Source: a virus (Duplodnaviria; Heunggongvirae; Uroviricota; Caudoviricetes). Taken from it: a DNA stretch of 64,000 nt. Of this stretch, positions 3,604 to 44,668 are shown one piece after another; the stretch's first letter is position 1, and the number at the start of each line of letters is the position of its first letter. A program made the translations under genes and the position numbers. The notes beneath the pieces were generated by a model. That model saw nothing but the letters and a program-made list of their open reading frames with translations, made no database searches and was not told the origin of the DNA. The stretch lies in IMG/VR virus record IMGVR_UViG_3300009419_001390; one strand, given 5' to 3'.

Positions 3604-6600
3604 ATGTTTATACAGCAATTATTTGAAGGTGAAATCAAACGGGTAATAGTAATTTATCCAGGACGTTTTCAGCCTTTCCATCTTGGGCACAAAGAGGTAT
3701 TTGAGACATTGCAGGCCAAATTTGGCATGGACAATGTTTACATAGGCACGTCAAACAAAACTGATGCTGTTAAAAGTCCTTTTAATTTCAGCGACAAGTT
3801 ACAGTTGATGACCGCCGCAGGTGTGAACAATCATCATGTGATCGAAGTAACTAGTCCTTACATGCCCGATGACTATATTCGTACAATTGGTTTTGACCCA
3901 AAACAAACTGTGATGATATTTGCAGTGGGTGAGCCGGACCTCAAGAGACTAGAAGTTGATGCCAATTATACTGCACTCACCCCAACAGGAAGACCCAGCA
4001 AGATACCCGACGGTAAATCAGTAGGCGATCCAAAACCATTCAAAACATTCCGAAGCCTACAAGACAGTACAACTGCTGATCAACATCAGTATGTGCTCAT
4101 TGTCAACGAACGTGAAAAAGCAGTTGAAGTAAACGGCAAGAAAATTAATGCCAGTCACGGAACACAAGTACGTGAGTTGTGGAACCAAGTACGCAATGAC
4201 CCCAAAGCCAGTGCTCAAGTACTGCAACAACTGTATGGCCGTGCCACTCCAGAACTAGCACATCTTTTTAACAAAATACCAGATTCCAATGCCGCACCTG
4301 CACCAGCACCAGCTGCCGCACCCAAGCTCAAAGCAGTTAAACAACCCCAACCAGCCGCTGACTTAAATGAATTTGCACCACCCGGCGGAGATGACGGCAA
4401 CGATGGATTCAGCGACGAAACATTAAAACGTCTAGCCGCACAGTGGTGGCAAGGTGACGAGGATCCTCGCGTAGAAAAAACACTTGCAGCCGCAGGTTGG
4501 GAAATTGGCCAAGACGAAGGCTACGACAACGGTGGTGTGTTTGTTGTGCAAGCAGGCGACATCAATGGCAACAGCTACATCAGCTGGCCAGCAGAAGAAC
4601 TAGAAGGCCTGGGCGAAGGTGCTATCATTACCAAAGACCAGTTAGTTGATATCTATATCAAAGGTAAAGGTAAAAACAACATGCCAATTCAAAAGAAAGT
4701 TGGCGCACAGATTCCAAACAGCAAAGTAAATGCTTTCATTGCCGCTGTTGCAGACAAGTACGGACTCAATCCAAAAGCATTTGTATACGGTCCTTCCAAT
4801 GGCATGTCTGAGGCCACAGGCGACGAGAAATTTGACAAGTCGATGAGACAAATGACTGGAAAAATTACTCCAGCTGATGCTGACGAGATGTTTCCAACAC
4901 AAGAATTTGAGCCCTATGATCTTGATCCATCGCGTGTGCCAAACGAGGAAAAATACAAGGCAAAGTTATTTCCATTGGCTTACCAGTACTGGACTGACGG
5001 TGACAATGCAGATGAATTAAGAAAATTAGGATGGGAGCCTGAATACGGCGATGACTATGTTATGGTAGTGCTGTATGGCATTGGGCACGATGGCCATATT
5101 CAATACGACAAATATGATTTTGATGCTGAAGGCAATGACAGTGTCAATGAAGATGCCGCAGGTGTTGGCGTAGTTGCCAGTAAAAAACAAAAGAACGATC
5201 CTCGATACAGCATGAGCTTGACCAAGGATGTACGTCCAGGAGAAGTTGCAAGGAACATGAAAAAATTACATTTAGAAGGCAACCGTGGATACAACCATGG
5301 CTTTGCAAGTCCAACTGCGCCCAGCCTGGGTCGCCGCGGTAGAGAAGATGATGAATACCATGTGCCAGATCCTGCTCCGTCAACTTGGTACATTCGTGCC
5401 AATGGCAAGATCATCAAAGACAAGATGGGCACACCATTTCAATTCCGCGACAAGGAAGCCGCACATAAGTCTGCAATGACCATGATGGCCAAGCCATTCA
5501 ATGCTGGCAAGAAGTTTGTGTTGACTACCCGACCTGAAGATGAGCAAGGTGTAGCGGAAGCAAAACATTTCCGTACTACCTATGGGTGGGCTGGTGGTCG
5601 AAATGAGAAAACTGGAAAGACCTACAAACACCCAGATCAGATCAAAGCCGACAAAGAAGAAAAAAGAAAAGAAAAAGAATTAGAATTAGAAAAAAATAAA
5701 CAACAGACCGTGGCAGAAGACGCAGGGCCAGTTACACATCGTATTGGCGTTACTGTGATTGATCCCAATCACCCTATGGTCAGCAAGCGCAAAGAAGCTA
5801 TTCAAAAATCAATTCGCATCACGCAAACTTCTCGTATTGATAGAGAAGCAGCCATTAACCAAGCTATTGCACACTATCGCCGCAAAGGTTACAAAGTATT
5901 AGATCACCACTACATGGGCACAGTTGATGCAACAGTAGCAGAAGGTGCAGAACTAAAGCAAGCCAAACGCAAGTACAACCAAGCGGCCAAGGATGCTAAC
6001 TTAGACCAAGTGGGCGCAGGCAAGAAGATTGATACAATGAAGAAAAGTCTGCGTCAAAAGGACCTAGACAATAAAAAAGAAATTGAAGAAGGTGCTACAG
6101 GTGCCAAGCCAGGTTGGATGCTGAGACAAGATCCAGCATTGGCCAAGAAAGTCAAAGACTCCAAGGCAGGCCACCAAGCACTGAAGAAGTGGGCAGGCAA
6201 ACCTGTGCCCAAAGATGACAAGCAAGATGTAGCGGAAGCAACTGGTGATCAGAAATTTGACACCATGATGAATAAAATGACCACTGGTGCAATGGATCGT
6301 GAATTTACTCTAGTTACGGAGCTAGGCAAACTAGGCCAACGAATTGTGCAAAATCCCAAACTTTGGGCTAGATACCAAGAAGAAAATGACAGCGGCGATC
6401 CCGATTGGATCATCAGTTTAATAATGGACGGAACTGGTGCCACTTTTGAAGAAGTGTCACATCTCAGCGACCTGTTCGGCGAAATAGGCGGCGGCATGGG
6501 ACGCATTATTGATTTTGCTTGGTCGGTGAAAGAAGGACACTGGGAAGAAGATTTCCTTAACCCATATAGACAACACAGAAGTCAAGGCGTGGCGGAAAGC

Positions 6601-7356
6601 ATGTTTGATATTGATGATAAAATCAAAGGGCAGATTCAAAATATAACTACTGAGATCAGCGACATTCCTGGTTACTGGGATCATCAGCGTGATACATTTA
6701 CACCGTACGGTGTTGAAGCGTTGGAAAAGGCCCTAGGCAATAATAAAAAATATGTAAAGTATGCTCTTAGTCTAACATCAGATGATTATTATGTAGACGA
6801 AAGTGGTCTTGGACTAGATTACAAGCGCAATCGCTTCAAGTCATTGAACATGCGCGAAAACACAGAAGAGCTGAACATAGGCGATCCTGTCATTATCACA
6901 GGGGATGTGCAATTCAAAGGCAAAACTGGTGACATTGACAGCTTTGGTGACATGAAACGTTTTGTTGTCGTTAACTTGTACAACTATGGTAGGCACAGTT
7001 TTCATTCCAGCGATGTCAGCTCCAATGAATATGTGGATCCAAACGAAATTGACGAAGACATGTATCAGTACAATAAAGAAGATCCATACAACAGCGAGTT
7101 TGCACCACGTGCAGGCATGGGCCGCATGACCTTACGTGGGTGGAAGCAACAAATGATCAAACGCACAGCAGAGCTGGCACAACAAATGTCAGACGCTGGG
7201 CAAGACATTGACAAGGCCGCAATATGGGATCATGTGTACAAAAAGCTCAAGAGCATGAACATGGATCCTATTGCACAAGAAATTGAACAAGCACAAGCAG
7301 AGCTAGAAAAAATTCGTCAGCGTGGCGGTGTGCGTAGCAGGGCATTTAACAAATGA
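3604..7356 (+). CDS. large modular protein: N-terminal HIGH-motif nucleotidyltransferase-like domain plus ~12 short cassettes; probable internal head polyprotein
   Basis: YPGRFQPFHLGH motif; recurring [LVIM]-x-E boundaries (LNE, LGE, MSE, VNE, VAE x5, IEE, IDE); duplicated ATGD(E/Q)KFD..M..MT cassette start. Confidence 0.75.
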   Translation: MFIQQLFEGEIKRVIVIYPGRFQPFHLGHKEVFETLQAKFGMDNVYIGTSNKTDAVKSPFNFSDKLQLMTAAGVNNHHVIEVTSPYMPDDYIRTIGFDPKQTVMIFAVGEPDLKRLEVDANYTALTPTGRPSKIPDGKSVGDPKPFKTFRSLQDSTTADQHQYVLIVNEREKAVEVNGKKINASHGTQVRELWNQVRNDPKASAQVLQQLYGRATPELAHLFNKIPDSNAAPAPAPAAAPKLKAVKQPQPAADLNEFAPPGGDDGNDGFSDETLKRLAAQWWQGDEDPRVEKTLAAAGWEIGQDEGYDNGGVFVVQAGDINGNSYISWPAEELEGLGEGAIITKDQLVDIYIKGKGKNNMPIQKKVGAQIPNSKVNAFIAAVADKYGLNPKAFVYGPSNGMSEATGDEKFDKSMRQMTGKITPADADEMFPTQEFEPYDLDPSRVPNEEKYKAKLFPLAYQYWTDGDNADELRKLGWEPEYGDDYVMVVLYGIGHDGHIQYDKYDFDAEGNDSVNEDAAGVGVVASKKQKNDPRYSMSLTKDVRPGEVARNMKKLHLEGNRGYNHGFASPTAPSLGRRGREDDEYHVPDPAPSTWYIRANGKIIKDKMGTPFQFRDKEAAHKSAMTMMAKPFNAGKKFVLTTRPEDEQGVAEAKHFRTTYGWAGGRNEKTGKTYKHPDQIKADKEEKRKEKELELEKNKQQTVAEDAGPVTHRIGVTVIDPNHPMVSKRKEAIQKSIRITQTSRIDREAAINQAIAHYRRKGYKVLDHHYMGTVDATVAEGAELKQAKRKYNQAAKDANLDQVGAGKKIDTMKKSLRQKDLDNKKEIEEGATGAKPGWMLRQDPALAKKVKDSKAGHQALKKWAGKPVPKDDKQDVAEATGDQKFDTMMNKMTTGAMDREFTLVTELGKLGQRIVQNPKLWARYQEENDSGDPDWIISLIMDGTGATFEEVSHLSDLFGEIGGGMGRIIDFAWSVKEGHWEEDFLNPYRQHRSQGVAESMFDIDDKIKGQIQNITTEISDIPGYWDHQRDTFTPYGVEALEKALGNNKKYVKYALSLTSDDYYVDESGLGLDYKRNRFKSLNMRENTEELNIGDPVIITGDVQFKGKTGDIDSFGDMKRFVVVNLYNYGRHSFHSSDVSSNEYVDPNEIDEDMYQYNKEDPYNSEFAPRAGMGRMTLRGWKQQMIKRTAELAQQMSDAGQDIDKAAIWDHVYKKLKSMNMDPIAQEIEQAQAELEKIRQRGGVRSRAFNK
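5545..6597 (+). repeat. dispersed 15-18 bp repeats encoding Q(G/D)VAE cassette junctions
   Basis: caaggtgtagcggaagca 5545-5562; caagatgtagcggaagca 6223-6240; caaggcgtggcggaa 6583-6597; related aaggtgtagcagaa at 7872-7885. Confidence 0.75.
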
Positions 7357-7699: not shown

Positions 7700-8017
7700 A
7701 TGAAGATCAGTGAAATCGTTGCAGAAGCTCGTGCCAACACAGACAGTGCAAGAGCAGGCTTGGCCAAACGCAAAGAAACCAAACCGTTGACGCCCAATGA
7801 GCAAATTGCCAAAGACAAAGCCAAGTCTGACAGGTGGCTAGAAAAAGAACGTGCCAAAATGGCAGCTAAAAAAGGTGTAGCAGAAACCACTGGCTCAAGC
7901 AGTATTGGCAGTGCAATGACTGGTGGCAGTAGTCCCAATGTAGGCACGTTGTTTGGCGGTAGTTACAAACCAAAGACACCGTTTACTGCCAAAAAGAAGA
8001 AAGCTGGTAAAAAATGA
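7700..8017 (+). CDS. small basic protein, probable internal head protein
   Basis: N-terminus MKISEIVAE resembles the T4 capsid-targeting sequence; internal GVAE site. Confidence 0.6.
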   Translation: MKISEIVAEARANTDSARAGLAKRKETKPLTPNEQIAKDKAKSDRWLEKERAKMAAKKGVAETTGSSSIGSAMTGGSSPNVGTLFGGSYKPKTPFTAKKKKAGKK

Positions 8018-8618: not shown

Positions 8619-8882
8619 ATGTTTGTGTATGAATTGTTTAACTCCGATCTTAATCCTGTCAACGAGAACAATGATTCTCGTAATGCAGTACAAAGTGCAA
8701 TCATACGCAGAATTATGACTCAACATAAAGAAGCGTTGGCTGCGCACGGTCCTGTTGTTATCATGCAGGCCGCAGAAGAAGTTGCTGATAATGTTGGCAA
8801 CGTTGACGAAATTGGCAGCAGTGACATAAGTGCATGGACACGCGAAGCATTAGCAATTTGTAAAGAACTAGGACGTACATGA
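8619..8882 (+). CDS. hypothetical protein, possible internal head protein
   Basis: MFVYELF start resembles MFIQQLFE of the 3604 gene. Confidence 0.6.
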   Translation: MFVYELFNSDLNPVNENNDSRNAVQSAIIRRIMTQHKEALAAHGPVVIMQAAEEVADNVGNVDEIGSSDISAWTREALAICKELGRT

Positions 8883-9910
8883 GCGGATCAGAAATTACAT
8901 CTCTTGCATCTACTGATCGCAAGCAGATATTTCCACTACAACAAGGATTCATTAATCCTATTACCGCATACCTATGGGGTGGCGGCGGCGGTGGTGGCGG
9001 CAACGACACAGGCACAGGCGGAAGCGGTGCTGCTGGACAGTTGATCAAAGTCACGTTTAACGCAAACGTTGGTGATATACTTGAGGTAAGTGTTGGCACT
9101 GGTGGTGGTCGCGGCTCAAGTGGAGTTAGAGGAACTGGTGGCGGCACTGCTGGATCTTCTTTTGTTGATGACGCTGGAACTAGATATGGTGGCGGACGCG
9201 GCGGCAACGCAGGTGGATCAGGAACGTCAGGAGGCGGTGGTGGAGGCGGTGGTGCTACTGTGATATCTTTGTTTCGTGTTGCACAAGCTGATAGAGTAGT
9301 TCTTGCAGTAGCAGGTGGTGGTGCAGGCGGTGGTGGTGCAGGTAATCGTGGCTCTCGCAATGGAAAAAATGCCAGTGCAACTGGGTCTGGTGCAAATGCA
9401 TTCCGTACTGGTGGTAACGGACAAGACCATTCTAGTGACGGTGGTGGTGGTGGTGGCGGTGGTGGTGGCTTTTATGGTGGTGCTGGCGGCGCAATCAGTG
9501 GCAGCTACGACGAAGGTGCCAACCCAGGCATAACTGGTAGCAGTTGGGCAAATGCCAGTATCACATTGTCAAATACTGTGTATGCAGGAACTGCTAGTGC
9601 TCCAACCAACATTGATGGATTTGACATTGGCCCTTATGCCAATGGTGGCACGGCCACACAAGCAGGTGGTTCTGGGTTTGCCATTCTTAGATTGATTAAT
9701 GGTCCGCTTCCTTTTATCAAAGTAGGTGGCAGCTGGGCTAAAGTAACCGCTGGATGGGTGAAAGACGGCGGTCAGTGGCGACCAATTACCGGCGCCTATC
9801 ATAAAATCAACAACAAATGGCAAACAATATCAAACGCTGATACTCTTGATTTTACCAACGCAAATGTTGGAATCAACTTTGGCGGTGGCGGAACTAGATC
9901 ATATGCATAA
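8879..9910 (+). CDS. glycine-rich virion/tail-associated protein
   Basis: Multiple GGGGG runs, G.AG....VTF...VGD.LEVSVGTGG pattern, C-terminal KVGGSW.KV..GWVKDGGQW motif. Confidence 0.65.
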   Translation: MSGSEITSLASTDRKQIFPLQQGFINPITAYLWGGGGGGGGNDTGTGGSGAAGQLIKVTFNANVGDILEVSVGTGGGRGSSGVRGTGGGTAGSSFVDDAGTRYGGGRGGNAGGSGTSGGGGGGGGATVISLFRVAQADRVVLAVAGGGAGGGGAGNRGSRNGKNASATGSGANAFRTGGNGQDHSSDGGGGGGGGGGFYGGAGGAISGSYDEGANPGITGSSWANASITLSNTVYAGTASAPTNIDGFDIGPYANGGTATQAGGSGFAILRLINGPLPFIKVGGSWAKVTAGWVKDGGQWRPITGAYHKINNKWQTISNADTLDFTNANVGINFGGGGTRSYA

Positions 9911-12604: not shown

Positions 12605-12672
12605 ATATTTTTGTCACGCTGGACACTAAACAGCAAGTAGAGTGTGTGTGAGCTAGAAGTCGCACAAAGGAG
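12601..12672 (+). promoter_or_regulatory. late promoter core plus structured 5' leader of the DNA polymerase gene
   Basis: ATAAATA 12601-12607; GCTG/CAGC stem; ACACT/AGTGT possible pseudoknot; TGTGTGA/TCGCACA hairpin abutting SD AGGAG 12668-12672. Confidence 0.5.
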
Positions 12673-12676
12673 AACT

Positions 12677-15337
12677 ATGAGCTACGTCGACGCATTGTTT
12701 GAACGAGATAAAGATCGTATACACGTGGTAGAACGTGTAGACGGCAAAAGAGAGTACAGAGAGTTTCCAGCAGACTACATCTTTTATTATGATGATCCGC
12801 GAGGCAAACACCGAACCATATACGGCACACCAGTAAGCCGTTTCAACACCCGCAATTCAAAAGAATACCACAAAGAACTAAAAGTCAACTCTGGCAAGCG
12901 CCTGTGGGAAAGTGACATCAATCCTGTTTTTCGTTGTTTGGAAACAAACTATCTAGGTGCCACATCACCCAAACTGCAAACAGCATTCTTTGACATTGAA
13001 GTAGACTTTGATCCACTACGTGGATTCTCAAAACCTGAAGATCCTTTCAACGCTATTACCGCAATCTCTGTGTACTTGGATTGGATGGACAAGATGGTCA
13101 CCTTGGTTGTCCCGCCCAAGAGCATGAGTTGGGAAACTGCACAAGAGATATGTGATCAATTTGATAACTGTTATCTATTTGAGCGTGAAGAAGAACTGTT
13201 AAACACATTTCTAGACTTGATTGAAGATGCTGATATCCTAAGCGGATGGAACAGTGAAGGCTTCGACATCCCTTATACTGTGATGCGTATCACACGTGTG
13301 TTGAGCAAAGACGACACACGCCGTTTCTGCTTGTGGGGACAACTGCCCAAGCAACGTATGTTTGAGCGATTTGGTGCTGAAACACTGACGTTTGACTTGA
13401 TTGGTCGTGTGCATATGGACTATATGCAACTGTATCGCAAGTACACATATGAAGAACGTCACAGCTACAGCCTGGATGCTATTGCAGAATACGAACTGGA
13501 TGAACGTAAGACACAATACGAAGGCACCCTGGATCAATTGTACAACAAAGACTTTCGCGAGTTTATTGTGTACAACCGGCAAGATACCATGCTACTCAAC
13601 AAGCTGGACAAGAAACTTAAATTCTTGGATCTAGCAAACGTACTAGCACATGAAAACACTGTACTGCTACAAACCACAATGGGTGCTGTGGCAGTTACTG
13701 AGCAAGCTATTATCAACGAAGCACATCAACTGGGACTAATTGTTCCCAACAGAAAAGGTAGAGATGATCATGGTGACACACAAGCGGCAGGTGCCTATGT
13801 TGCTTTCCCCAAAGCAGGCATGCACGACTGGGTTGGAGCAATCGACATCAACAGCTTGTATCCTTCTGCGATCCGTGCCTGCAACATGGGCCCAGAAACA
13901 ATCGTTGGACAGATCCGGCCAGTAATGACCGACAAGTATATCAAGGACAAGATGGACTCAGGTAGCAGTTTTGCTGATGCTTGGGAAAACATGTTTGGCA
14001 CTCTTGAATATACTGCTGTGATGGAAAATCGTCCTGGCACCGAACTTACCATTGATTGGGAGTCGGGCGAATCAACTGTACACTCAGCCGCGGAAGTCTG
14101 GCGACTGATCTTTGACAGTCACAAGCCCTGGATCCTTACTGCCAACGGCACTATCATGACATATGAAAAGAAAGGTGTTATCCCTGGCTTGCTGGAACGT
14201 TGGTATCGTGAACGTCAAGAAATGCAGGCCAAGAAGAAGGATGCAGAAACAGATGAAGACAAAGCCTTTTGGGACAAACGACAGCTGGTCAAGAAAATTA
14301 ACTTGAACAGTTTGTACGGTGCTATTCTCAATCCAGGTTGTAGGTTCTTTGACAAGCGTATTGGTCAGTCAACTACACTTACAGGACGAATCATTGCCAG
14401 ACACATGGATGCATACATCAATGAGTGCATCTTTGGAGAATACGATCATGTGGGTAAGGCAATCATCTACGGAGACACTGACTCTGCTTACTTCAGTGCG
14501 TGGCCTGCTGTGAAGGAAGATGTTGAAGCTGGCAGGATGGAGTGGAACAAAAACATCTGTGTGCAACTGTACGACAGCATTGCAGATCAAGTGAACGCCA
14601 GTTTTCCAGCATTCATGGAACGGGCCTGCCACTGTCCACGCAACATGGGCGAACTGATCAAAGGCGGTCGTGAGCTGGTGGCTGAGAAAAGTTTGTTTAT
14701 CAAGAAGAAACGTTATGCACTGTTGATCTATGACCTAGAAGGCAAGCGACAAGACACACACGGCAAACCAGGCAAAGTTAAAGCCATGGGGCTAGACTTG
14801 AAGCGCAGTGATACACCCAAGGTTGTACAAGACTTCTTGAGCGAACTGTTGCTGGATGTGCTAACAGGCGGACAGAAGGAAGGTATCTATGACAAGGTGC
14901 GTGACTTCAAGATTGCATTTCAAGAACGTCCTGCTTGGGAAAAAGGCACACCCAAACGTGTGAACAACTTGACCAAATACACTGCTGAAGAGTCTAGACT
15001 GGGCAAAGCCAACATGCCAGGACATGTACGTGCGGCTATGAACTGGAACAATCTCAAACGCATGCACGGTGACAACTATAGCACCAGCATTGTAGACGGT
15101 ATGAAAACCATTGTGTGTAAACTGAAAGAAAATTCATTGAACTATACTTCAGTTGGATATCCAACTGATGAACTGCACGTTCCGCAATGGTTCAAGGAAC
15201 TACCGTTTGACGATGCACTGATGGAGACAACCATTGTGGATCAAAAGGTAGAAAACTTGTTGGGTGTTCTAAAGTGGAACATTGCAGAAAACACTGACAT
15301 TGCCACCACGTTTGATAGTTTGTTTACATTTGACTGA
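12677..15337 (+). CDS. family B DNA polymerase (gp43-like)
   Basis: Exo motifs FFDIEV, GWNSEGFDIPY, YNRQD; Pol motifs DINSLYPS, KKINLNSLYG, YGDTDS, KKRYAL. Confidence 0.97.
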   Translation: MSYVDALFERDKDRIHVVERVDGKREYREFPADYIFYYDDPRGKHRTIYGTPVSRFNTRNSKEYHKELKVNSGKRLWESDINPVFRCLETNYLGATSPKLQTAFFDIEVDFDPLRGFSKPEDPFNAITAISVYLDWMDKMVTLVVPPKSMSWETAQEICDQFDNCYLFEREEELLNTFLDLIEDADILSGWNSEGFDIPYTVMRITRVLSKDDTRRFCLWGQLPKQRMFERFGAETLTFDLIGRVHMDYMQLYRKYTYEERHSYSLDAIAEYELDERKTQYEGTLDQLYNKDFREFIVYNRQDTMLLNKLDKKLKFLDLANVLAHENTVLLQTTMGAVAVTEQAIINEAHQLGLIVPNRKGRDDHGDTQAAGAYVAFPKAGMHDWVGAIDINSLYPSAIRACNMGPETIVGQIRPVMTDKYIKDKMDSGSSFADAWENMFGTLEYTAVMENRPGTELTIDWESGESTVHSAAEVWRLIFDSHKPWILTANGTIMTYEKKGVIPGLLERWYRERQEMQAKKKDAETDEDKAFWDKRQLVKKINLNSLYGAILNPGCRFFDKRIGQSTTLTGRIIARHMDAYINECIFGEYDHVGKAIIYGDTDSAYFSAWPAVKEDVEAGRMEWNKNICVQLYDSIADQVNASFPAFMERACHCPRNMGELIKGGRELVAEKSLFIKKKRYALLIYDLEGKRQDTHGKPGKVKAMGLDLKRSDTPKVVQDFLSELLLDVLTGGQKEGIYDKVRDFKIAFQERPAWEKGTPKRVNNLTKYTAEESRLGKANMPGHVRAAMNWNNLKRMHGDNYSTSIVDGMKTIVCKLKENSLNYTSVGYPTDELHVPQWFKELPFDDALMETTIVDQKVENLLGVLKWNIAENTDIATTFDSLFTFD

Positions 15338-22912: not shown

Positions 22913-23887
22913 ATGGCAACAAAGAAACAAACCGAAGCAGAAAAACTTGCAGAACAAGAGCGTCTGATTCAAGTGCTCAAGTTTACACCACGCACCTACA
23001 GCATCTGCATGTGGGGCTACGGTGGCGAGAAAGTCATGGGTACTGTGGATCGCAAGATTTACGATTACTTCAAGCAACGTAGACTAGATGTAAGTGACTT
23101 TGCTTGGGATAGTGACTATGCAGAAGACAACAACATTCCAGAAGACATGTGGCCATTTTCTCCAGGCTCATGGTACGATTGCGACAACATGGGCCATGTG
23201 CATGGTGTTAGCCGCAATGCTGGCACACTGCAAATCTTGGACGAAAACGGTAACGCTGTATTTGAAAAGAGTTTTGATGCCATTGATGGCGGTGGTGAAG
23301 ATGGTCCAGACTGGTCATGTGGTGACGAAGTTTGGATTGGTTCTCAAGCTGACGGTACAGTAGTGTTTCTTGGCAGTAGTAATGAAAAAGGCACATTCTT
23401 TGAAGGAGAGATTGAACTCAAAGAACCTTTTGATATTACCAAACTGTGCTTGGGTTACGACGAAGTTGATGGCGAAGAAATTATCAATACTGTAACCTAC
23501 GACGACGAAGACATTGACAACAACGGTGGCAACACAGATGGTAAGAGTTCAGACTTTGGCATGTACATTGCTGGTTCACAAAAACACAATGATGGCAAGT
23601 GGGAAAAGTACACCAACATGGATGACATTGTGTACACTATGACTGAGTGGTTTCCAAAGAAAGTTCAGCCTGTGCGTGAAGGTGTTTACAATATCAAGAC
23701 TGCTGGTAAGAACAGCTACACACATCAGGCCAAATGGACTGGCTCACGTTGGATTAGTTCTTGGCAAGAAGACGGCAGTGGCACTGAAGAACTCAAAATC
23801 AAAGAGTGGCAGGGTATTGCTTACAATCCTGACGAGCAAGACCTGCGTGACGAACTAGATAAAATTATTCTAGATTCGGAGTGCTAA
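22913..23887 (+). CDS. acidic hypothetical protein
   Basis: 324-aa ORF; C-terminal EWFP..VQPVREGVY module. Confidence 0.75.
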   Translation: MATKKQTEAEKLAEQERLIQVLKFTPRTYSICMWGYGGEKVMGTVDRKIYDYFKQRRLDVSDFAWDSDYAEDNNIPEDMWPFSPGSWYDCDNMGHVHGVSRNAGTLQILDENGNAVFEKSFDAIDGGGEDGPDWSCGDEVWIGSQADGTVVFLGSSNEKGTFFEGEIELKEPFDITKLCLGYDEVDGEEIINTVTYDDEDIDNNGGNTDGKSSDFGMYIAGSQKHNDGKWEKYTNMDDIVYTMTEWFPKKVQPVREGVYNIKTAGKNSYTHQAKWTGSRWISSWQEDGSGTEELKIKEWQGIAYNPDEQDLRDELDKIILDSEC

Positions 23888-24858
23888 TGACAAAAATATT
23901 TGTAACAGGTGCAACAGGCTACATTGGTAGCCATGTGTGCAAACAACTCAAGCAGGACGGCTATGAAGTAGTTGGCCTTGACCGTGTGCATCGTGAACAT
24001 ACTATAAAGCACATGGATCGCTTTATTGAAGCTGACTATCATAGTCCTGTGTGTTTTGATGCACTGGCCTACGAACAACCAGATGCTATCATTCATCTAG
24101 CAGGTACCAGCCTTGTTGGTCCTAGCATGAGTGATCCTGCTGAATACTATACCAACAACGTGGCCAAGACTGCGGCATTGTTGGATGTGGCACGTTGGTT
24201 GGAAAAGATGCCAGTGATTGTGTTTTCTAGTTCAGCCGCTGTGTATGGCAATCCGGATGCCAAGGTCATATACGAGCACACACCATACAGTCCACTGAGC
24301 CCGTATGGTACTAGCAAGGCCATGATTGAAATCATGCTTACTGATTACAATCGTGCATATGGAATGAAAAGTGCAAGTCTACGCTATTTCAATGCCTGCG
24401 GCGCAGATCTTGACAGTGAACTAGGCCAAGAACCTGGTGCCACACACATTATTGCACGACTATTGGAAAGTGTACGTGATAACACAGAATTCACACTGTA
24501 CGGTGATGGCACTCATGTGCGTGACTACGTACACGTGACTGACCTAGCCGCCGCACATGTTATGGCTGTGCAGTATCTCATGAGCGACATGCAGGAATGT
24601 ATGGCATTGAATCTTGGCACAGGTACTGGTGCCAGCAATCAAGAGATCATTGATTTGGTTGCGCAGTTGGTTGGTACCGTGCAACTGACCAAGGCGCCAG
24701 CAAGACCAGGTGATCCAGCACAACTGGTAGCAGGCAATCTAATGGCAAAGACCACGCTGGGCTGGAGTCCTGCACATTCAGACCTCAAGACCATTATTGA
24801 ATCAGCTTGGAAGTGGTATAATAACCTACCACATGTCATTGACAAATCATCTAAATAA
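23887..24858 (+). CDS. galE: UDP-glucose 4-epimerase (extended SDR)
   Basis: GATGYIGSH, HLAG.SLVG.S..DP..YY.NN, SSSAAVYG, YGTSK, LRYFNACGA, RDYVHVTDLA.AH. Confidence 0.9.
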   Translation: MTKIFVTGATGYIGSHVCKQLKQDGYEVVGLDRVHREHTIKHMDRFIEADYHSPVCFDALAYEQPDAIIHLAGTSLVGPSMSDPAEYYTNNVAKTAALLDVARWLEKMPVIVFSSSAAVYGNPDAKVIYEHTPYSPLSPYGTSKAMIEIMLTDYNRAYGMKSASLRYFNACGADLDSELGQEPGATHIIARLLESVRDNTEFTLYGDGTHVRDYVHVTDLAAAHVMAVQYLMSDMQECMALNLGTGTGASNQEIIDLVAQLVGTVQLTKAPARPGDPAQLVAGNLMAKTTLGWSPAHSDLKTIIESAWKWYNNLPHVIDKSSK

Positions 24859-24867
24859 TCTTACAAT
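24839..24867 (+). promoter_or_regulatory. sigma70-type promoter with nested late core
   Basis: TTGACA-17-TACAAT; spacer contains CTAAATA. Confidence 0.7.
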
Positions 24868-24907
24868 ACAAACAAAGTCATCCACGACTATTAACTCGGA
24901 GAACAAA

Positions 24908-25678
24908 TTGACATACAACAAAGTATACATTAGCAACGATCCAGACGAAACAGCACTGGATGCCATGGCAGGCGATGGCGGCTACGAACTAGGTACAGCA
25001 CACAAACAGATCGCATTCAAAATGAACAGAGACAAAAAACGTTTCTGGGCAGGCGACAACATCAGTGACTATGTTGATGACAAAGCCAAAGAGCAATTGA
25101 TTGACGAAGCCACAGCGGCATTTGAACTTGTGTTAGACACGCTACTAATTGATCGACAAACCGATCCCAACAGCCAAGGCACAGCCCGACGCCTGGCCAA
25201 GATGTACTTCAATGAAATAATGGCAGGTAGATATGACACAGCACCAGACGCAACAGCATTTCCTAATGATTCAACAGACCGTTACGAAGGCATGTTGGTT
25301 GTACGCAGTGAATTGCGCAGTATGTGTAGTCATCATCATCAACCAGTTACTGGGGTCGCCTATATTGGAATCATCGCTGCCGAAAAGCTCATTGGTTTAT
25401 CTAAGTATACTCGCATTGCTCAGTGGTGTGCTAGGCGTGGTACTTTACAAGAAGAACTGGCCAATGACATCGCACGAGAAATACAAAAAGCCACAGGAGC
25501 CACAGACCTAGGTGTGTATATTCAAGCCACGCACGGATGCTGTGAGAATCGCGGCATCATGGCACACTCTAGTTTAACACAGACTACTGTGCTTAAAGGT
25601 GCATTCAAGGACGATGGTAATACAAAGAAGGAATTCTTTGACAACATTAAACTACAACAGGAGTTTGCACCAAGATGA
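24908..25678 (+). CDS. folE: GTP cyclohydrolase I
   Basis: SMCSHHHQP, GLSKY.RI, LQEEL, HGCCENRG; TTG start after GGAG. Confidence 0.95.
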   Translation: MTYNKVYISNDPDETALDAMAGDGGYELGTAHKQIAFKMNRDKKRFWAGDNISDYVDDKAKEQLIDEATAAFELVLDTLLIDRQTDPNSQGTARRLAKMYFNEIMAGRYDTAPDATAFPNDSTDRYEGMLVVRSELRSMCSHHHQPVTGVAYIGIIAAEKLIGLSKYTRIAQWCARRGTLQEELANDIAREIQKATGATDLGVYIQATHGCCENRGIMAHSSLTQTTVLKGAFKDDGNTKKEFFDNIKLQQEFAPR

Positions 25679-29422: not shown

Positions 29423-29845
29423 ATGAGACAAGAAATCTTTGAAGATCTTCCAGAAACGATTGAAGAAAGTGAAGCACCTTGGACTGACAGCGTAAGGCAG
29501 GATTTCCATGTGGCAGTGTATCGCGACAGATATCCTGTCACAGACGGCCATCTGTTGTTTGTACCCAAGTACAATGCTGTGGGTGTGCTCAAGGATGCAT
29601 TTGAAGATGCATTCAATTACGGAAAAGAAAAGGTTGATGATGGCGAATGGGACGGTTTCAACATTGGACTTAATTACGGCCAGGCTGCTGGACAAACTGT
29701 GTCTTGGCCTCATATACATCTTATTCCCCGTAAAACGGGCGACGTCGCGGATCCTGTGGGCGGTGTACGACACACGATTCCGGGCAAGGGTAATTATAGA
29801 ACGGCGCCAGAGGGAACGTGGCCACATTTAGATGAGGGAAGATGA
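29423..29845 (+). CDS. HIT family hydrolase
   Basis: YPVTDGHLLFVPK, GFNIGLN.G.AAGQTV, HIHLIPR. Confidence 0.92.
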   Translation: MRQEIFEDLPETIEESEAPWTDSVRQDFHVAVYRDRYPVTDGHLLFVPKYNAVGVLKDAFEDAFNYGKEKVDDGEWDGFNIGLNYGQAAGQTVSWPHIHLIPRKTGDVADPVGGVRHTIPGKGNYRTAPEGTWPHLDEGR

Positions 29846-30708
29846 TAATAGTAACCGGTGACCGTGGCTTTATAGGAAGCGAATTAAAACAACATCTTGT
29901 GGAGCACGGCCACAAGGTACACAGTCTAGATTGGGCTGATAGAGGTCGGACCTGGACTGCTGAAGAACCCATTGAATGGATTTTTCACATGGGTGCCATC
30001 AGCGAAACCAATGTAACTGACTGGTCAGCTTTGGTCAAGAAGAATATTGAAGACACCCAAGCCTGGATCCGGTTTGCACAAGAACACAACTGTGGTATTA
30101 CCTACGCATCAAGTGCCAGTGTGTACGGGCCGTGGTCGGGTAGCCCAGAGTGGGGTCCATTCCAGCCACAGCACTACTACGGTGTGAGCAAGATTGCTAT
30201 TGACATGTGGTGTGCAGAACAAAAATTTACTGTGCCTGTACAAGGTGTGCGTTTCTTTAATGTATATGGACGCAACGAAGGTCACAAGAACCAGCCAAGT
30301 CCAGTCCGCAGATATATTGAGAATGCAATAACCACACGTAAACTTACAGTGTGGCACCACAACAATCGTCTGGGCTCACGAGATTTTATCAGCGTGGATG
30401 ACTGCATCAAGGGCATGCTGGCGCTGAAAGATGCAAGAGTGAGTGGCGTTTACAACCTAGGCACAGGCCAACAGCTGACATTTGAAGACATTGCCAAGCT
30501 GATTCAAAAGCATATGGGCATGGACAATGCTCAAGTATGCATTGCTCCCATGCCTGATCATATGATTGAAAAATATCAGTGGGAGAGTCTAGCGGACCTA
30601 AATAAGCTAAAGTCAGTTGTTCCAAATTGGAATCCACAAACGGTGGATGAATGGCTAGACGACAATTTTGAAACACTGTATAATAAAATCAAAGAGGAAA
30701 TACTATGA
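29842..30708 (+). CDS. ADP-L-glycero-D-manno-heptose 6-epimerase-like SDR
   Basis: TGDRGFIG, FHMGAIS.T, YASSASVYG, YGVSK, RFFNVYG..E.HK, RDFISVDD, YQ....ADL. Confidence 0.8.
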   Translation: MIIVTGDRGFIGSELKQHLVEHGHKVHSLDWADRGRTWTAEEPIEWIFHMGAISETNVTDWSALVKKNIEDTQAWIRFAQEHNCGITYASSASVYGPWSGSPEWGPFQPQHYYGVSKIAIDMWCAEQKFTVPVQGVRFFNVYGRNEGHKNQPSPVRRYIENAITTRKLTVWHHNNRLGSRDFISVDDCIKGMLALKDARVSGVYNLGTGQQLTFEDIAKLIQKHMGMDNAQVCIAPMPDHMIEKYQWESLADLNKLKSVVPNWNPQTVDEWLDDNFETLYNKIKEEIL

Positions 30709-31598
30709 AATTGAAAGTAAGCGAAATGTTCTACAGCCTGCAAGGCGAAGGCAGATACATAGGTGTGCCTAGCGTGTTCTTGCGTACATTTGGTTGTAAT
30801 TTTACCTGTGGTGGATTTGGCATGCCCAAGGGTGAAGTTAGTACAGAACGCGATGCCGTTGATGCAAGCAAATATTCTAAATTTGAACAATTACCATTGG
30901 TACATACTGGCTGTGACAGCTATGCCTCATGGGATCCCAAGTTCAAAGATCTTAGTCCCACAAAAGACATTGACACTATTGTAGACGAATTACTGGCTCT
31001 TACCCCTAATGGCAAATGGCAACAATACATTGGCAACCCTGTGCATCTGGTGATCACAGGCGGTGAGCCATTGTTGGGTTGGCAACGTGTGTATTCTGAA
31101 CTGTTAAGTCATCCAAGAATGATAGATCTTGATTATATTACATTTGAAACCAATGGCACTCAGATGTTGGATGAAAAGTTCAAAGACTATATTCAAGAAT
31201 GGCATACCGAATGGCGTGGCACCACCGAAGCCGACCATCAAGAGTACATTGGTCGTTTCCGTGAAATGCAATTTAGCATTAGTCCTAAACTGAGCAAGAG
31301 TGGCGAGAAGTGGGCTGATGCTATCTGTCCTGAAGTAATTGCTGATTATCAACATGTTGGTGTTACATATCTAAAATTTGTTGTTTCAGATTTTGAAGAC
31401 CTGATGGAAGTAAAAAGTGCGGTAGACGAATACCGTGCCGCAGGGTTTATGGGCCATGTGTATGTGATGCCAGTTGGTGGCACAACAGAACTGTATGATG
31501 TTAACAAAAAGCGCATTGCTGACGAAGCATTGAAACTTGGATATTACTACAGCCCGCGACTGCATGTGGACCTTTGGGGAAATGGCTGGGGCAAGTAA
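30705..31598 (+). CDS. queE: 7-carboxy-7-deazaguanine synthase (radical SAM)
   Basis: EMFYSLQGEG..G.PSVFLR..GCN..C, GCDS, ITGGEPL, ETNGT, SISPK, PRLHVDLW. Confidence 0.92.
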   Translation: MKLKVSEMFYSLQGEGRYIGVPSVFLRTFGCNFTCGGFGMPKGEVSTERDAVDASKYSKFEQLPLVHTGCDSYASWDPKFKDLSPTKDIDTIVDELLALTPNGKWQQYIGNPVHLVITGGEPLLGWQRVYSELLSHPRMIDLDYITFETNGTQMLDEKFKDYIQEWHTEWRGTTEADHQEYIGRFREMQFSISPKLSKSGEKWADAICPEVIADYQHVGVTYLKFVVSDFEDLMEVKSAVDEYRAAGFMGHVYVMPVGGTTELYDVNKKRIADEALKLGYYYSPRLHVDLWGNGWGK

Positions 31599-34000: not shown

Positions 34001-34243
34001 ATGAATGAACGAATTGCAGAACTGATGCGGAGTAAAGGTCTACACAAAAATATCAGTGAAGACTGTCAGCATCGCATGGAGATGTTAGCCGAGTTGATTG
34101 TTCTTAAATGTGCTGATATTATCAATCATCGTGCTGACACATGCAGTGATTGGTTAGATAGTGTCAAGGCAAATGAAGCAGTCCGTGAAGGACAAAGAGA
34201 GTGTGCTAAAACGATCAAAGAACATTTCGGAGTTGAAGAATGA
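34001..34243 (+). CDS. small hypothetical protein (MNERI family)
   Basis: MNERIAEL...ELIVLKCA...IKEHFGVEE. Confidence 0.7.
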   Translation: MNERIAELMRSKGLHKNISEDCQHRMEMLAELIVLKCADIINHRADTCSDWLDSVKANEAVREGQRECAKTIKEHFGVEE

Positions 34244-34479
34244 ACGAACGAATTCGAGAACTTTGGACACAGGCTGGAGGTCGCTATGATAGCGGCAATC
34301 AGCACGCTTGGCCCGAGTACACAATTGATGATCCAGAAAAGTTCGCCAAGTTGATTGTTCGAGAATGTATGGTGTGTTCTACTTGGGTTGGCAAGATGAA
34401 TACTAATAGTGTTGAACCAATACACACCGCTCACGCCGTCAATCAGCGTATCAAACAACAGTTTGGAATTGAAGCGTGA
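34240..34479 (+). CDS. small hypothetical protein (MNERI family)
   Basis: MNERIREL...EKFAKLIVREC...IKQQFGIEA. Confidence 0.7.
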   Translation: MNERIRELWTQAGGRYDSGNQHAWPEYTIDDPEKFAKLIVRECMVCSTWVGKMNTNSVEPIHTAHAVNQRIKQQFGIEA

Positions 34480-41116: not shown

Positions 41117-41993
41117 TATTGCAGATTTAGATTGCATATTCTTGACCTATGACGAGCCAAAGAAAGAAGAATTCTGGATACGTATCAAAAACATGGTCCC
41201 ATGGGCCAAGCGTGTGGACGGCGTTAAAGGAAGTGATGCGGCCCACAAGGCTGCTGGCCGTGCCAGTGACACTGATCGTTTTATCATTATTGATGGCGAT
41301 AATATTCCTGATCCTGGTTTTTTCAATCTTCAGTTATCCCTTGATGATACTAATAGGGATTGTGTGTTCCGCTGGAAAGCCCGCAACACAATCAACGGAT
41401 TGATGTATGGCAATGGTGGTCTGAGTTGTTGGACTCAAGATTTTGTTGAGAACATGCGCACACACGAAGCCACAGACGGCACGGCGGCAAATGACGTGGA
41501 ATTTTGTTTTTACCCCAACTACTGGGCCATGCACGATTGTTACTCAACTACCTATCCCAATCAAACACCCCATCAGGCCTGGAGAGCAGGATTTCGTGAA
41601 GGTGTCAAGATGTGCTTGGATCGTGGACAACGTCCTAGCCTTGCTGAATTCAAAGCACGGGTACATGCACGTAACATGGATCATTTGACCATATGGCAAA
41701 GTGTTGGTGCCGACGATGCCAATGGCTTTTGGGCTGTGTATGGAGCTCGCTGTGGCACGTACATGACCATGCTCAATGACTGGGACTACACAAAGGTACA
41801 GGATTTTGACGAGCTACAAAAACTCTGGAACACATATCAACAGCATGACGCAGATGACTGCACTGCTGTAGGAGATGTTCTGCGCAGACAACTAGGGTTG
41901 AACATTGTGGATCTGGACCCAGAGCCTAGTGCATTTTTCAAACATCACTACAAAAGCAATTTTACAAATAAAGGTATAATGACACGTGAGTGA
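41085..41993 (+). CDS. GT-A fold glycosyltransferase-like protein
   Basis: DCIFLTYDEP, FIIIDGDN (DxD), NGLMYGNGG, QAWRAGFREG. Confidence 0.65.
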   Translation: MSQGTQTTLIDIADLDCIFLTYDEPKKEEFWIRIKNMVPWAKRVDGVKGSDAAHKAAGRASDTDRFIIIDGDNIPDPGFFNLQLSLDDTNRDCVFRWKARNTINGLMYGNGGLSCWTQDFVENMRTHEATDGTAANDVEFCFYPNYWAMHDCYSTTYPNQTPHQAWRAGFREGVKMCLDRGQRPSLAEFKARVHARNMDHLTIWQSVGADDANGFWAVYGARCGTYMTMLNDWDYTKVQDFDELQKLWNTYQQHDADDCTAVGDVLRRQLGLNIVDLDPEPSAFFKHHYKSNFTNKGIMTRE

Positions 41994-43347
41994 TTTTATG
42001 CAAGCCGCAGAGGATATGAAGGCCAAACTTGGGCCAGCTCTCTGCTTGGCCAAATGGCAACAAGTTAGTTTGCATTTGGCCACCGGAATGAACAATTCCT
42101 GCTACCATCCACCGTTACACAAAATACCAGCAGAATTATTAAAAGACAACCCAGGTGCATTGCACAACACCCCATACAAAAAACAACAGCGTGTGATCAT
42201 GCTGAAAGATCAACGACCATCAGAGTGCGGCTACTGCTGGTCAGCAGAAGACAACGGACAACTAAGTGACAGACATTATCGTTCTGGTGAGCCGTGGGCC
42301 GCAGAACACCTTAACAGTATTAAAACAAATACAGGAGAAGAAGATGTTATACCTAGTTACGTTGAAGTCAATTTTAATCATGCTTGCAATCTTAAATGCA
42401 GTTATTGTAGTCCACAATTTAGTTCTAGCTGGCAAGCAGAAGTTAATGCCCACGGAGCCTATCCCACTGCTACACCTCATAATAGCCCTGAGCATTTTAC
42501 TGGTAGCCGCCGGCCTATTCCTGCAAGAGATCATAATCCTTATGTTGACGCATTCTGGGATTGGTGGCCTACCTTATATCCAAGATTAAAACATTTTCGT
42601 ATGACTGGCGGAGAACCACTCATGGATCACAATACATATCGTGTGTTTGACTATGTGTTGGCGCTACCGCTTAATGGCCTACACCTGGATGTGACCAGTA
42701 ACTTTAGCGTAGAGCCCAAGCTAATGGACAAATATCTTGGTTATGTGAAACAACTGTGCAACACACAGATAGAACATTTCATGCAGTATGTTAGCCTTGA
42801 CACCGGTATAGCCGCTCAAGCTGAATACATACGCAATGGACTAGACTTTGAACGTTGCCTTGACAATGTAGACAGGTACTTGACAGACATTCCGTATAAG
42901 AATAGCTTAACATTTATCATTACCATGAACAATTTGAATATCACTGGCCTACACGATCTATTGGATTACATACTAGAACTACGTGCTAGACACAGCAAGA
43001 CCTATCAGCGTGTGTGGTTTGATACACCATTGCTACGCACACCTGCCTGGCAAAGCATACAAACCTTGCCAGCAAGTTACAAATACAAACTGGAACAAGT
43101 GATTGGTTTCATGAAAGAAAATCAAATGACGGATGGCTTTGTGGGATTCAAAGACTACGAGATACAGCGTATGGAACGTAATCTAGCATGGATGCACGAA
43201 ACTCCGCCAGCACTGACAACACAACGTGCAGACTTTTATCGTTTCTTTGCAGAGCATGATCGGCGTCGTGGCACAGACTTTTTACAAACATTTCCAGAGA
43301 TGACGGAATTCTGGCAGGAGTGCAAATATCATGCCGAAACTGAATAA
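41986..43347 (+). CDS. radical SAM protein 1 with N-terminal Cys-rich twitch/SPASM-like domain
   Basis: CNLKCSYC, MTGGEPL; N-terminal CLAKW...SCYH...CGYCW. Confidence 0.9.
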   Translation: MSDFMQAAEDMKAKLGPALCLAKWQQVSLHLATGMNNSCYHPPLHKIPAELLKDNPGALHNTPYKKQQRVIMLKDQRPSECGYCWSAEDNGQLSDRHYRSGEPWAAEHLNSIKTNTGEEDVIPSYVEVNFNHACNLKCSYCSPQFSSSWQAEVNAHGAYPTATPHNSPEHFTGSRRPIPARDHNPYVDAFWDWWPTLYPRLKHFRMTGGEPLMDHNTYRVFDYVLALPLNGLHLDVTSNFSVEPKLMDKYLGYVKQLCNTQIEHFMQYVSLDTGIAAQAEYIRNGLDFERCLDNVDRYLTDIPYKNSLTFIITMNNLNITGLHDLLDYILELRARHSKTYQRVWFDTPLLRTPAWQSIQTLPASYKYKLEQVIGFMKENQMTDGFVGFKDYEIQRMERNLAWMHETPPALTTQRADFYRFFAEHDRRRGTDFLQTFPEMTEFWQECKYHAETE

Positions 43348-44668
43348 CGAAACAGATTTGGAATACAAACGCAGAGTTATTGACATCAAGTCAGCCAGCT
43401 TCTGCGGAGCCAAATGGTATAATGCTACCATATGGTTAGGTAGCGGACAAACAACCAGTTGTCATCATCCGTTGCCCCACGCTATTGACTTAGATCAAAT
43501 AAGTCAAAATCCTGCCGCATTGCACAACACCACGCAAAAGAAAAAAGAGCGTGAGCAAATGCAACGTGGTGAACGCCCAGCAGGGTGTGACTACTGCTGG
43601 AAGATCGAAGACATGAACACGGATGCTGTATCTGATCGTGTCTATAAAACTGTGATACATTCCGAGGAGGACCTAAATGTTGCATTCGCCCGACCAAGTT
43701 ATACCGACTTCAACCTTCGCACGTTGGAAATTGCTTTTGACAGAACTTGTCAGTTTGCTTGCTCTTATTGTAACCCTGCTTTTAGTAGTACTTGGGTTAA
43801 TGACATACGTAAAAACGGACCCTACATTAACCTGGTATCAGACGGGCGCGGTCATTTTACTCACACTCATGATCATAGTCAACTTTATAAATTCGGTGAG
43901 ACTAATCCGTATGTGGAGGCTTTTTTCAAATGGTGGGAAACTGACCTCCACCGCACCCTTACAGAGCTCCGCATCACAGGAGGAGAGCCACTCATGTCGG
44001 CCCATACCTGGAAACTCATTGACTGGTTCAAACAAAACCAAGGACGCTCAAACACACGTCTAGCTATCAACACCAACCTTGGCCGAGAAGTAGACGTTGA
44101 TCGACTGCTGGCATCTACGCAAGGCATTGAACTAGACATATATACCAGTTGCGAAACAATAACTGCACAGGCAGAATACATACGTGATGGATTAGACTGG
44201 CCGGCCTGGGTTAAAAATATAGAAAAGATTGCCAACAGTGGCATACGTGGATTGCACATGATGTGTACCATCAACGCATTGTGTTTGCCCGGACTACCAG
44301 CGTTCATTACTACCATGATGATGTTCAAGCAAAGTTACGGCAGAGATTTTCCTAGCATGAGCTTTAACATCTTGCGTTTTCCAAGTTTTCAAAGTGCATA
44401 CGTTCTACCACTTGCACTACGCATGGAATATGCACATGCCATTGAACAAATAGTTGAGCAATATCAAAACAATAGTCTCATGCACGAACACGAAATCAAT
44501 CAATTGACACGGTTAATCAACTACTTGCGAGAACCAGTGACTGGACCAGAATTGCCTAGAATGCAAAACGATTTCAAACAATTTTACGCACAATACGATC
44601 AACGCAGAGGAAAGAACTTTATTACCACTTTCCCTGAACTTAAGGAATTCTATGAGCAAATACCCTAG
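43331..44668 (+). CDS. radical SAM protein 2 with N-terminal twitch-like domain
   Basis: CQFACSYC, ITGGEPL; FCGAKW...SCHH...CDYCW. Confidence 0.9.
   Translation: MPKLNNETDLEYKRRVIDIKSASFCGAKWYNATIWLGSGQTTSCHHPLPHAIDLDQISQNPAALHNTTQKKKEREQMQRGERPAGCDYCWKIEDMNTDAVSDRVYKTVIHSEEDLNVAFARPSYTDFNLRTLEIAFDRTCQFACSYCNPAFSSTWVNDIRKNGPYINLVSDGRGHFTHTHDHSQLYKFGETNPYVEAFFKWWETDLHRTLTELRITGGEPLMSAHTWKLIDWFKQNQGRSNTRLAINTNLGREVDVDRLLASTQGIELDIYTSCETITAQAEYIRDGLDWPAWVKNIEKIANSGIRGLHMMCTINALCLPGLPAFITTMMMFKQSYGRDFPSMSFNILRFPSFQSAYVLPLALRMEYAHAIEQIVEQYQNNSLMHEHEINQLTRLINYLREPVTGPELPRMQNDFKQFYAQYDQRRGKNFITTFPELKEFYEQIP

Follow-up and report, generated by a model that had tools for sequence, protein, structure and literature searches.

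RNA viruses and retroviruses characteristically make one polyprotein and cleave it into numerous functional proteins, and we know of no description of such many-product cleavage for tailed phages. The closest described phage systems are the internal proteins of bacteriophage T4, the "polyvalent" proteins of diverse phages, and the inner-body and ejection proteins of phiKZ and SPN3US. In T4, the capsid targeting sequence MKTYQEFIAE is cut off by the prohead protease gp21 (PMC8442874), which cleaves after L/I-X-E and whose processing is prevented by an Asp at P1 (PMC9026906). Here we compare with these systems the gene P0001, which lies in a 64,000-nucleotide stretch of DNA (hereafter the window) from the Caudoviricetes record IMGVR_UViG_3300009419_001390. 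It belongs to an uncultivated huge phage, the longest recorded contig with P0001 being 371 kb. Full-text literature searches and a jumbo-phage review yielded no description of phage polyproteins of this kind.

The comparisons below demonstrate a widespread family of mosaic proteins whose small, independently folding cassettes are shuffled combinatorially and are each flanked by a conserved motif ending in Glu; the phages that carry it belong to a lineage whose head genes are of the T4 type. As for what the protein does, we infer targeting, cleavage and retention alike, and consider it probable that P0001 is a polyprotein targeted to the capsid, where the prohead protease would cleave it after Glu to yield proteins that are internal or ejected.

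Architecture of the polyprotein

P0001 opens with a short leader and an enzyme domain, after which the chain divides into 14 segments of 19–120 amino acids (aa) each. Its parts are listed here with window coordinates and, for segments, length and net charge; a slash marks the putatively cleaved bond, and pLDDT is the predicted local distance difference test of the structural models described below.

3604..7356, + strand: P0001 polyprotein gene, an open frame of 1250 aa with 85 mosaic homologues and syntenic orthologues
3604..3627, + strand: N-terminal leader MFIQQLFE/G (8 residues), like a capsid targeting sequence, common to proteins with different first domains
3628..4371, + strand: HIGH-superfamily nucleotidyltransferase domain (PF01467, HxGH at PFHLGH) and Pro/Ala linker, ending LNE256
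4372..4617, + strand: cassette C2, 82 aa, -14, ending LGE338; commonest module (52 of 84 homologues, 395 representative clusters)
4618..4812, + strand: cassette C3, 65 aa, +5, ending MSE403; bounded by breakpoints and found at another position in P0003
4813..5151, + strand: cassette C4, 113 aa, -16, starting ATGDEKFD, ending VNE516; a precise 113-aa indel in P0004
5152..5277, + strand: cassette C5, 42 aa, +4, ending HLE558 (weak junction); mostly travels with C6
5278..5559, + strand: cassette C6, 94 aa, +3, ending VAE652; breakpoints, core pLDDT 82–90
5560..5718, + strand: cassette C7, 53 aa, +4, ending VAE705; breakpoints, orthologue comparison
5719..5943, + strand: cassette C8, 75 aa, +4, ending VAE780; 33 homologues, also in cyanophage BUCT-ZZ01, pLDDT 85–94
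5944..6090, + strand: cassette C9, 49 aa, +4, ending IEE829; breakpoints, preceding-residue contexts
6091..6237, + strand: cassette C10, 49 aa, +5, ending VAE878; breakpoints, preceding-residue contexts
6238..6597, + strand: cassette C11, 120 aa, -10, starting ATGDQKFD, ending VAE998; breakpoints, helical in the model
6598..6801, + strand: cassette C12, 68 aa, -6, ending VDE1066; breakpoints
6802..6858, + strand: short segment C13, 19 aa, +3, ending MRE1085; breakpoints
6859..7056, + strand: cassette C14, 66 aa, -8, small beta-barrel, ending IDE1151; model pLDDT 85–93
7057..7353, + strand: C-terminal module C15, 99 aa, +3; orthologues led by the nucleotidyltransferase conserve it

The enzyme domain is the only part to match a known family. 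The Pfam scan assigned residues 17–110 to PF01467 (cytidylyltransferase-like; E=2.2e-8, 34.8 bits against a cut-off of 21), the PHROGs match is PHROG 395, and the HxGH signature occupies residues 24–29. TIGR00125 passes its cut-off (29.1 vs 27.7); TIGR01527, the equivalog for nicotinamide mononucleotide (NMN) adenylyltransferase, aligns with about the first 60 residues and reaches 36.3 bits, short of the 181.2 at which membership is set. Among solved or curated proteins, archaeal-type NMN adenylyltransferases come closest, and because the scores lie far under the cut-offs for that enzyme, we name the domain only as a HIGH-superfamily nucleotidyltransferase. Beyond it, Pfam and PHROGs scans of the whole of P0001 gave nothing, and so no homology to T4 IPI, IPII, IPIII or Alt; the Pfam scan at E<=1 detected no peptidase family and no zincin-like metallopeptidase (MPTase), although a divergent domain of this kind might escape it. 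NCBIfam and PDB-sequence searches, together with an ESM Atlas feature search for C8, returned no cassette function.

A first-pass annotation of this gene, made by reading its letters, had proposed a dozen small proteins of alternating acidic and basic character, separated by 13 sites. The peptide strings that it quoted are all present in P0001, and 12 of the 13 sites (E8, 256, 338, 403, 516, 652, 705, 780, 829, 878, 998 and 1151) coincide with breakpoint clusters in comparison with 84 relatives. The thirteenth, HLE/G at E558, fares less well, because its P3 residue is a non-canonical His and because C5 and C6 mostly travel together. Two further sites with breakpoint support, VDE1066/S and MRE1085/N, had been missed. 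The dozen is roughly right given the 14 segments after the enzyme, although one of these has only 19 aa and C5–C6 is possibly a single unit. The charges are likewise real, ranging from -16 to +5, but they alternate strictly only across C2–C5 and C12–C15. Two cassettes do begin alike, with ATGD[EQ]KFD at residues 404 and 879 (E=1e-4), whereas the LAxQxW...GWE core proposed as common to C2 and C4 is a weak resemblance (BLASTP E=2.9; hhalign E=0.009, probability 4.6%).

Cassettes as exchangeable and separately folded units

A search of 5.8 billion proteins gathered 85 relatives of P0001, whose best alignments are 36–98% identical, with identity reaching at least 70% in about 50, and mostly cover only 5–30% of the query. 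Many have different first domains, and among the family members Pfam recognizes Zeta_toxin, HD_4, ParB_N, GH19, GP88, DUF6321 and DUF6934. The starts and stops of homology, taken from BLAST segments, do not scatter along P0001; they cluster at residues 256, 338, 403, 516, 558, 652, 705, 780, 829, 878, 998, 1066, 1085 and 1151. The closest relatives show what happens at these points. P0004, a 98%-identical orthologue, agrees with P0001 at 94–100% of positions across the first 400 residues and lacks exactly 113 residues, which are those of C4 (404–516), while P0003 lacks exactly the 178 residues of C3 and C4 and carries C3 at a different position. In nearly all carrier proteins a cassette retains the [LIVM]-x-E motif on both flanks, with highly varied neighbors. 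Across related contigs the genomic position of the orthologous gene is constant (it comes after lysis genes, DnaJ, ClpB and three small genes, and ahead of Dps and family B DNA polymerase, PolB, which lie farther on) and its cassette content varies; both the content and the order of the cassettes differ among orthologues, the comparison that had been proposed with the original idea.

A structural view of the chain was obtained with an AlphaFold model spanning residues 231–1250 (1020 residues) and built on an alignment of co-linear orthologues; a MAFFT alignment of 140 fragments from high-scoring segment pairs to the same residues was dropped, as most fragments were misplaced. The mean pLDDT of the model is 56, with 47.6% of residues below 50, and out of this background rise discrete folded units at pLDDT 70–94, corresponding to C2, C3, C6, C8, C11, C12 and C14. 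All 14 junctions lie in linkers of pLDDT<50 between the better-folded units, a coincidence with a chance of about 3e-5 if they are independent. C2 modelled alone gives a confident alpha+beta fold (pLDDT 82), for which the fold search returned no credible match (best Foldseek E=0.17–0.26, VIA Z=4.0). PDB matches of the whole model are only weak KOW/Tudor-like barrels (E about 0.02), listed with no aligned range; they may belong to C14, the only all-beta unit of the model. Matches in BFVD are proteins of uncultured phages, at least two of which (DUF6321- and Gene 88-containing) come from families also present in relatives of the polyprotein. Comparative and structural evidence together support the picture of a chain of independent cassettes.

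A conserved peptide at the junctions

What do the junctions have in common? In P0001 itself, [LIVM]-x-E followed by a small residue or by D, F or N at P1' occurs 15 times against 6.25 in shuffles (P<0.001), and the tripeptide VAE occurs five times against 0.43 expected, a count reached in none of 5000 shuffles. The stronger test is that of position: across the family, compared all against all (85 proteins), 39% of 5024 distinct internal breakpoints fall within four residues of [LIVM]-x-E, compared with 14.7 +/- 0.4% of random positions; the motif is thereby commoner at boundaries than chance would have it, which was the outcome on which the first-pass annotation had staked its proposal.

The Glu residues at breakpoints were also analyzed without presupposing any motif. 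Their P3 position is V, L, M or I in 65% of cases, whereas at other Glu residues Val accounts for 9% and no other aliphatic residue is among the eight commonest listed; further preferences are Gly at P4 (28%), Gln at P5 (18%), Ala or Asn at P2 and G, F, N or A at P1'. Nine cassettes followed through their carriers gave 262 distinct contexts, in 258 of which Glu stands directly ahead of the cassette and in none of which Asp does, and all 13 canonical sites of P0001 have an aliphatic P3. The consensus, Q-G-[V/L/M/I]-[A/N]-E / [G/A/F/N/S/D], with its aliphatic P3, invariant P1 Glu and small P1', supports an assignment as putative sites for a T4-type prohead protease.

These features bear on a first alternative, namely that P0001 is an uncleaved multidomain polyvalent protein acting, or packaged, as one chain, like the N4 virion RNA polymerase, in which [LIVM]-x-E would merely mark flexible linkers or recombination joints. 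Phage proteins with 2–15 domains and extensive mosaicism are indeed known, and some are packaged unprocessed (PMC5512222). Some junctions moreover contain a short DNA repeat, CAAGGTGTAGCGGAAGCAA, at 5536, 6214 and 7862, so that 19–28 nt of microhomology is common to three junctions and could serve recombination. Since the codons for Val-Ala-Glu differ synonymously from one junction to another, however, the constraint acts on the peptide, and conservation at the DNA level was rejected as its primary cause; the persistence of Glu at P1, with no Asp in the 262 contexts, likewise speaks for selection on the peptide.

Leaders equivalent to junctions

The same bond recurs where no linker is called for, at the end of short N-terminal leaders. 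A leader of 8–10 residues is common to N-termini with quite different first domains (MFIQQLFE/G, MFVNDLFE/K, MNLYNLFE/N and MKFKDITE/S), and leaderless homologues of the nucleotidyltransferase begin right at the first strand. C2 makes the point most broadly. An exhaustive HMMER search with this cassette found 395 representative clusters, in proteins of 99–1601 aa; [LIVMF]-x-E/F precedes it in about all of the 135 representative proteins examined, [LIVM]-x-E follows it in 128 of 131, and in 16 of the 135 it stands right behind an N-terminal leader of 5–14 residues (e.g., MKINDILFE/FAPP). Three small genes downstream of P0001 show the same relation within the window:

7700..8017, + strand: stand-alone cargo gene with leader MKISEIVAE/ARANT... 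and an internal GVAE/T site; residues 9–101 homologous to cassettes of P0024, P0040 and P0019
8014..8616, + strand: stand-alone cargo gene with leader MSDMRKLLE/S, homologous to the N- and C-terminal parts of polyprotein P0059
8619..8882, + strand: small gene, MFVYELFN..., whose homologues are cassettes inside eight polyproteins

The cassette that begins ARANT... thus follows VAE/ at the start of a gene of its own, and TNE/, MSE/ or MRE/ inside P0024, P0040 and P0019. Such cases support the view, which we regard as the most telling result, that N-terminal leaders and internal junctions are interchangeable as judged from their sequences. As the same site brackets cassettes and ends leaders, a cassette could be gained, lost, relocated or turned into a leader-tagged gene of its own and still be processed. 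That the same bond closes the leaders of stand-alone genes, where a linker would have no reason to exist, is the second argument against an uncleaved chain, which we regard as unlikely.

Two side observations concern the same neighborhoods and motifs. Right after the leader-tagged cluster, 8879–9910 (+) encodes a 343-aa protein with long Gly runs (GGGGGGG) and a weak PHROG match to "virion structural protein". Farther away, the adjacent small open reading frames (ORFs) 34001–34243 and 34240–34479 (+), of 79–80 aa, both start with MNERI[A/R]E/L, a beginning that resembles a leader, and they may have arisen by duplication.

Protease and head genes in related phages

Contig G005, whose PolB is 74% identical to that of the window, encodes a Peptidase_S77 (gp21-type; E=1.9e-23), with the genes for a scaffold and for a capsid protein of Gp23 type (E=2e-98) adjoining. 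The scaffold ends in ...FNE/ATGDK, which corresponds to the start of C4 and C11; the capsid protein starts with ...ALLE/GLSG; and four consecutive genes of this contig bear leaders or QGVAE junctions. A second contig, G008, which carries a cassette protein, also encodes a Peptidase_S77, the figure for PolB kinship being that of G005 alone. In the other eight contigs tested, fragments that are 24–65% complete, no head module was found.

Two further genes on these contigs deserve mention. Just upstream of the protease and scaffold of G008, L036 375–1418 encodes a 347-aa, extremely acidic protein with repeated DDVEE/G or DDVEE/S, which may be a core protein with many sites. On G005, L022 4373–5299 encodes 308 aa that begin with the leader MRLRE/, continue with C2 and pass into a hydrophobic Gly/Ala-rich stretch; its C-terminal motifs, ESANF... 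and GRGFIQLTG, read by eye as GH19-lysozyme-like, making it a possible capsid-delivered cell-wall enzyme.

Among cultured phages, nucleotide and protein searches of the records found no close relative and only four weak partial matches. The 612-aa "hypothetical protein" UTS51990 (L034 2455–4293) of BUCT-ZZ01 (ON615601), a cultured T4-like phage of Synechococcus elongatus PCC 7942, lies between terminase and baseplate genes and holds cassette C8, an E/ATGDQ cassette start and a DPCWKGYK...NCVP cassette; E/GEGPKQTHRVG is another of its predicted junctions. A "cytidylyltransferase-like" protein of Microcystis phage Mel-JY01 was also considered and is not a cassette polyprotein.

Genomic setting

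Scans of the genes of the window found no head genes. A T4-type PolB gene lies at 12644–15337, and a ClpB-like AAA+ chaperone (2–1123, +; PHROGs label "ATP-dependent protease") precedes the polyprotein gene by a few genes; handling of the polyprotein by a chaperone is conceivable. The synteny is conserved in relatives (L025, L027), where a DnaJ homologue and lysis genes (GH19, holin) are found upstream too. The search for T4 late promoters found TATAAATA nowhere in the window, and the six copies of ATAAATA precede early-type genes too; the one upstream of the polyprotein gene has a counterpart upstream of the DNA polymerase gene.

The window further contains genes for a Dps/ferritin, a desaturase, and deazaguanine and sugar modification. 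The last group comprises GTP cyclohydrolase and QueE-like radical-SAM genes, three nucleotide-sugar epimerases and an aminotransferase (24797–25678, 30705–31598, 23881–24858 and 29842–30708, all +; 51733–53756, -), which together would fit DNA or a surface glycan being modified with deazaguanine, with sugar or with both. At 41986–50886 (+), seven head-to-tail, slightly overlapping genes of 378–462 aa form an apparent tandem array of paralogues; of the four that were scanned, three gave weak radical-SAM PHROG matches and one (49498–50886) gave none.

Proposed mechanism and alternatives

In the mechanism that we favor, the short N-terminal leader, as an analogue of the T4 capsid targeting sequence, would send the precursor to the scaffolding core of the prohead. 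During head maturation, a T4 gp21-type serine protease would then cut after Glu at about 14 exposed junctions. This would release the nucleotidyltransferase along with at least a dozen small proteins, acidic or basic, some of which would remain with the DNA and be ejected into the next host; others may be expelled rather than retained. The resemblance of the leader to the T4 capsid targeting sequence, the fit of the motif to the L/I-X-E specificity of gp21, and the presence in frame of conflict-type enzymes in relatives (Zeta_toxin, HD_4, ParB_N, GH19), support this reading, and by the same enzymes a payload of anti-defense or takeover factors is plausible.

A broader version holds that the cargo is plug-and-play: one universal site would serve both as leader end and as joint between cassettes, so that any small protein flanked by it could be loaded, either from its own gene or as a bead of a polyprotein, and recombination at the joints would generate combinatorial sets of injected effectors across hundreds of lineages, among which C2 would be a common member with a new fold. 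For this generalization we see the case as evenly balanced.

Several observations weigh against capsid delivery of cleaved cassettes. First, bare [LIVM]-x-E is not enriched in P0001 (21 vs 16.3 in shuffles, P=0.12), and seven more copies of it fall within domains; a generic leader pattern matches 14 of the 176 ORFs of the window, unrelated ones included; and P3 is mostly Val, where T4 prefers Leu or Ile. Second, the dips in pLDDT at the junctions may in part have been caused by the mosaic alignment itself. Third, no function is assignable to any cassette by the sequence and fold searches, a weak KOW/Tudor-like barrel being the only recognizable fold. Finally, the protease of the relative has no match within the 64-kb window, and the gene is placed not in a head module but close to genes for chaperones, lysis and replication.

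This last point feeds a second alternative, in which the polyprotein is cut in the cytoplasm by a different Glu-specific protease of phage or host and its products act, unpackaged, in the same infection. Its neighbors, DnaJ/ClpB-type chaperones and replication genes, would suit such a role, and the promoter data allow no assignment to a class. Genes for T4 internal proteins, however, likewise lie outside the head module; the motif and leaders match gp21 and the capsid targeting sequence specifically; a gp21-type protease is encoded in the lineage; the head scaffold and capsid protein of the relative bear the same kind of site; and the homologous polyprotein of BUCT-ZZ01 does lie between terminase and baseplate genes. 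We consider cytoplasmic processing improbable. Equally hard to credit is a core or scaffold-type head protein, cut mainly for removal and serving as space filler or size determinant like T4 gp22, gp67 and gp68: T4 core proteins are cleaved to many, largely expelled fragments, many of the predicted products are small (2–13 kDa), and the head module of a relative has its acidic protein with repeated VEE/G or VEE/S, but the cassettes are conserved, independently folded domains that are extensively shuffled, the Zeta-toxin-like kinase, HD, ParB and lysozyme domains of relatives are typical of effectors and not of scaffolds, and relatives have a dedicated scaffold gene.

Significance and comparison with known systems

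If confirmed, delivery of capsid-packaged cassettes would show how huge phages bring a large stock of ready-made proteins, rapidly re-assorted, into the host just as the DNA enters, which is when anti-defense factors are most useful. It would also provide a sequence rule (leader or junction, then cassette) with which to find injected effectors in metagenomes, and a natural template for packing several foreign proteins into T4-type capsids. As a cultured phage, BUCT-ZZ01 offers a tractable model for the family in which the idea is directly testable.

How does the locus compare with what has been described? The inner-body and ejection proteins of phiKZ and SPN3US resemble the scheme proposed for it, since many head-internal proteins of giant phages are cut after Glu by a gp21 homologue (gp175/gp245) and have multi-site propeptides. 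They differ in P3, which is small there (S/A/G-X-E or A-X-E) and aliphatic here, and in outcome, since long propeptides are removed from one mature protein instead of a series of distinct domains being released.

Polyvalent proteins (Iyer et al., 2017, PMC5512222) are large multi-domain mosaics for which packaging, and injection along with the DNA, have been proposed; P0001 has the many-domain mosaic build that characterizes them (about 15 modules), and its relatives share with them Zeta toxin, ParB, lysozyme and HD domains. Their processing was attributed to an embedded zincin-like MPTase, of a kind not detected in P0001, whereas here a conserved putative site for a protease acting in trans surrounds every module, and the modules are mostly of 40–120 aa with no assigned family.

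The closest match is T4. Its IPI, IPII, IPIII and Alt likewise have a short leader ending in aliphatic-x-Glu and are cleaved after Glu at L/I-X-E, as is predicted here; its internal proteins are a diverse, rapidly evolving cargo; both termini of Alt, an enzyme cargo, carry propeptides; and a gp21-type protease and a Gp23-type capsid protein are found in the present lineage as well. Unlike the T4 cargos, which are separate genes cut once or twice, up to about 15 are fused here with internal sites between them, cassettes move freely between polyproteins and genes of their own, T4 internal proteins show no similarity in sequence, P3 is mostly Val, and leaders have 5–14 aa. The arrangement is a variation on the T4 internal-protein and capsid-targeting system, and what is new in it is the fusion of many cargos in one frame and their free exchange between polyproteins and stand-alone genes.

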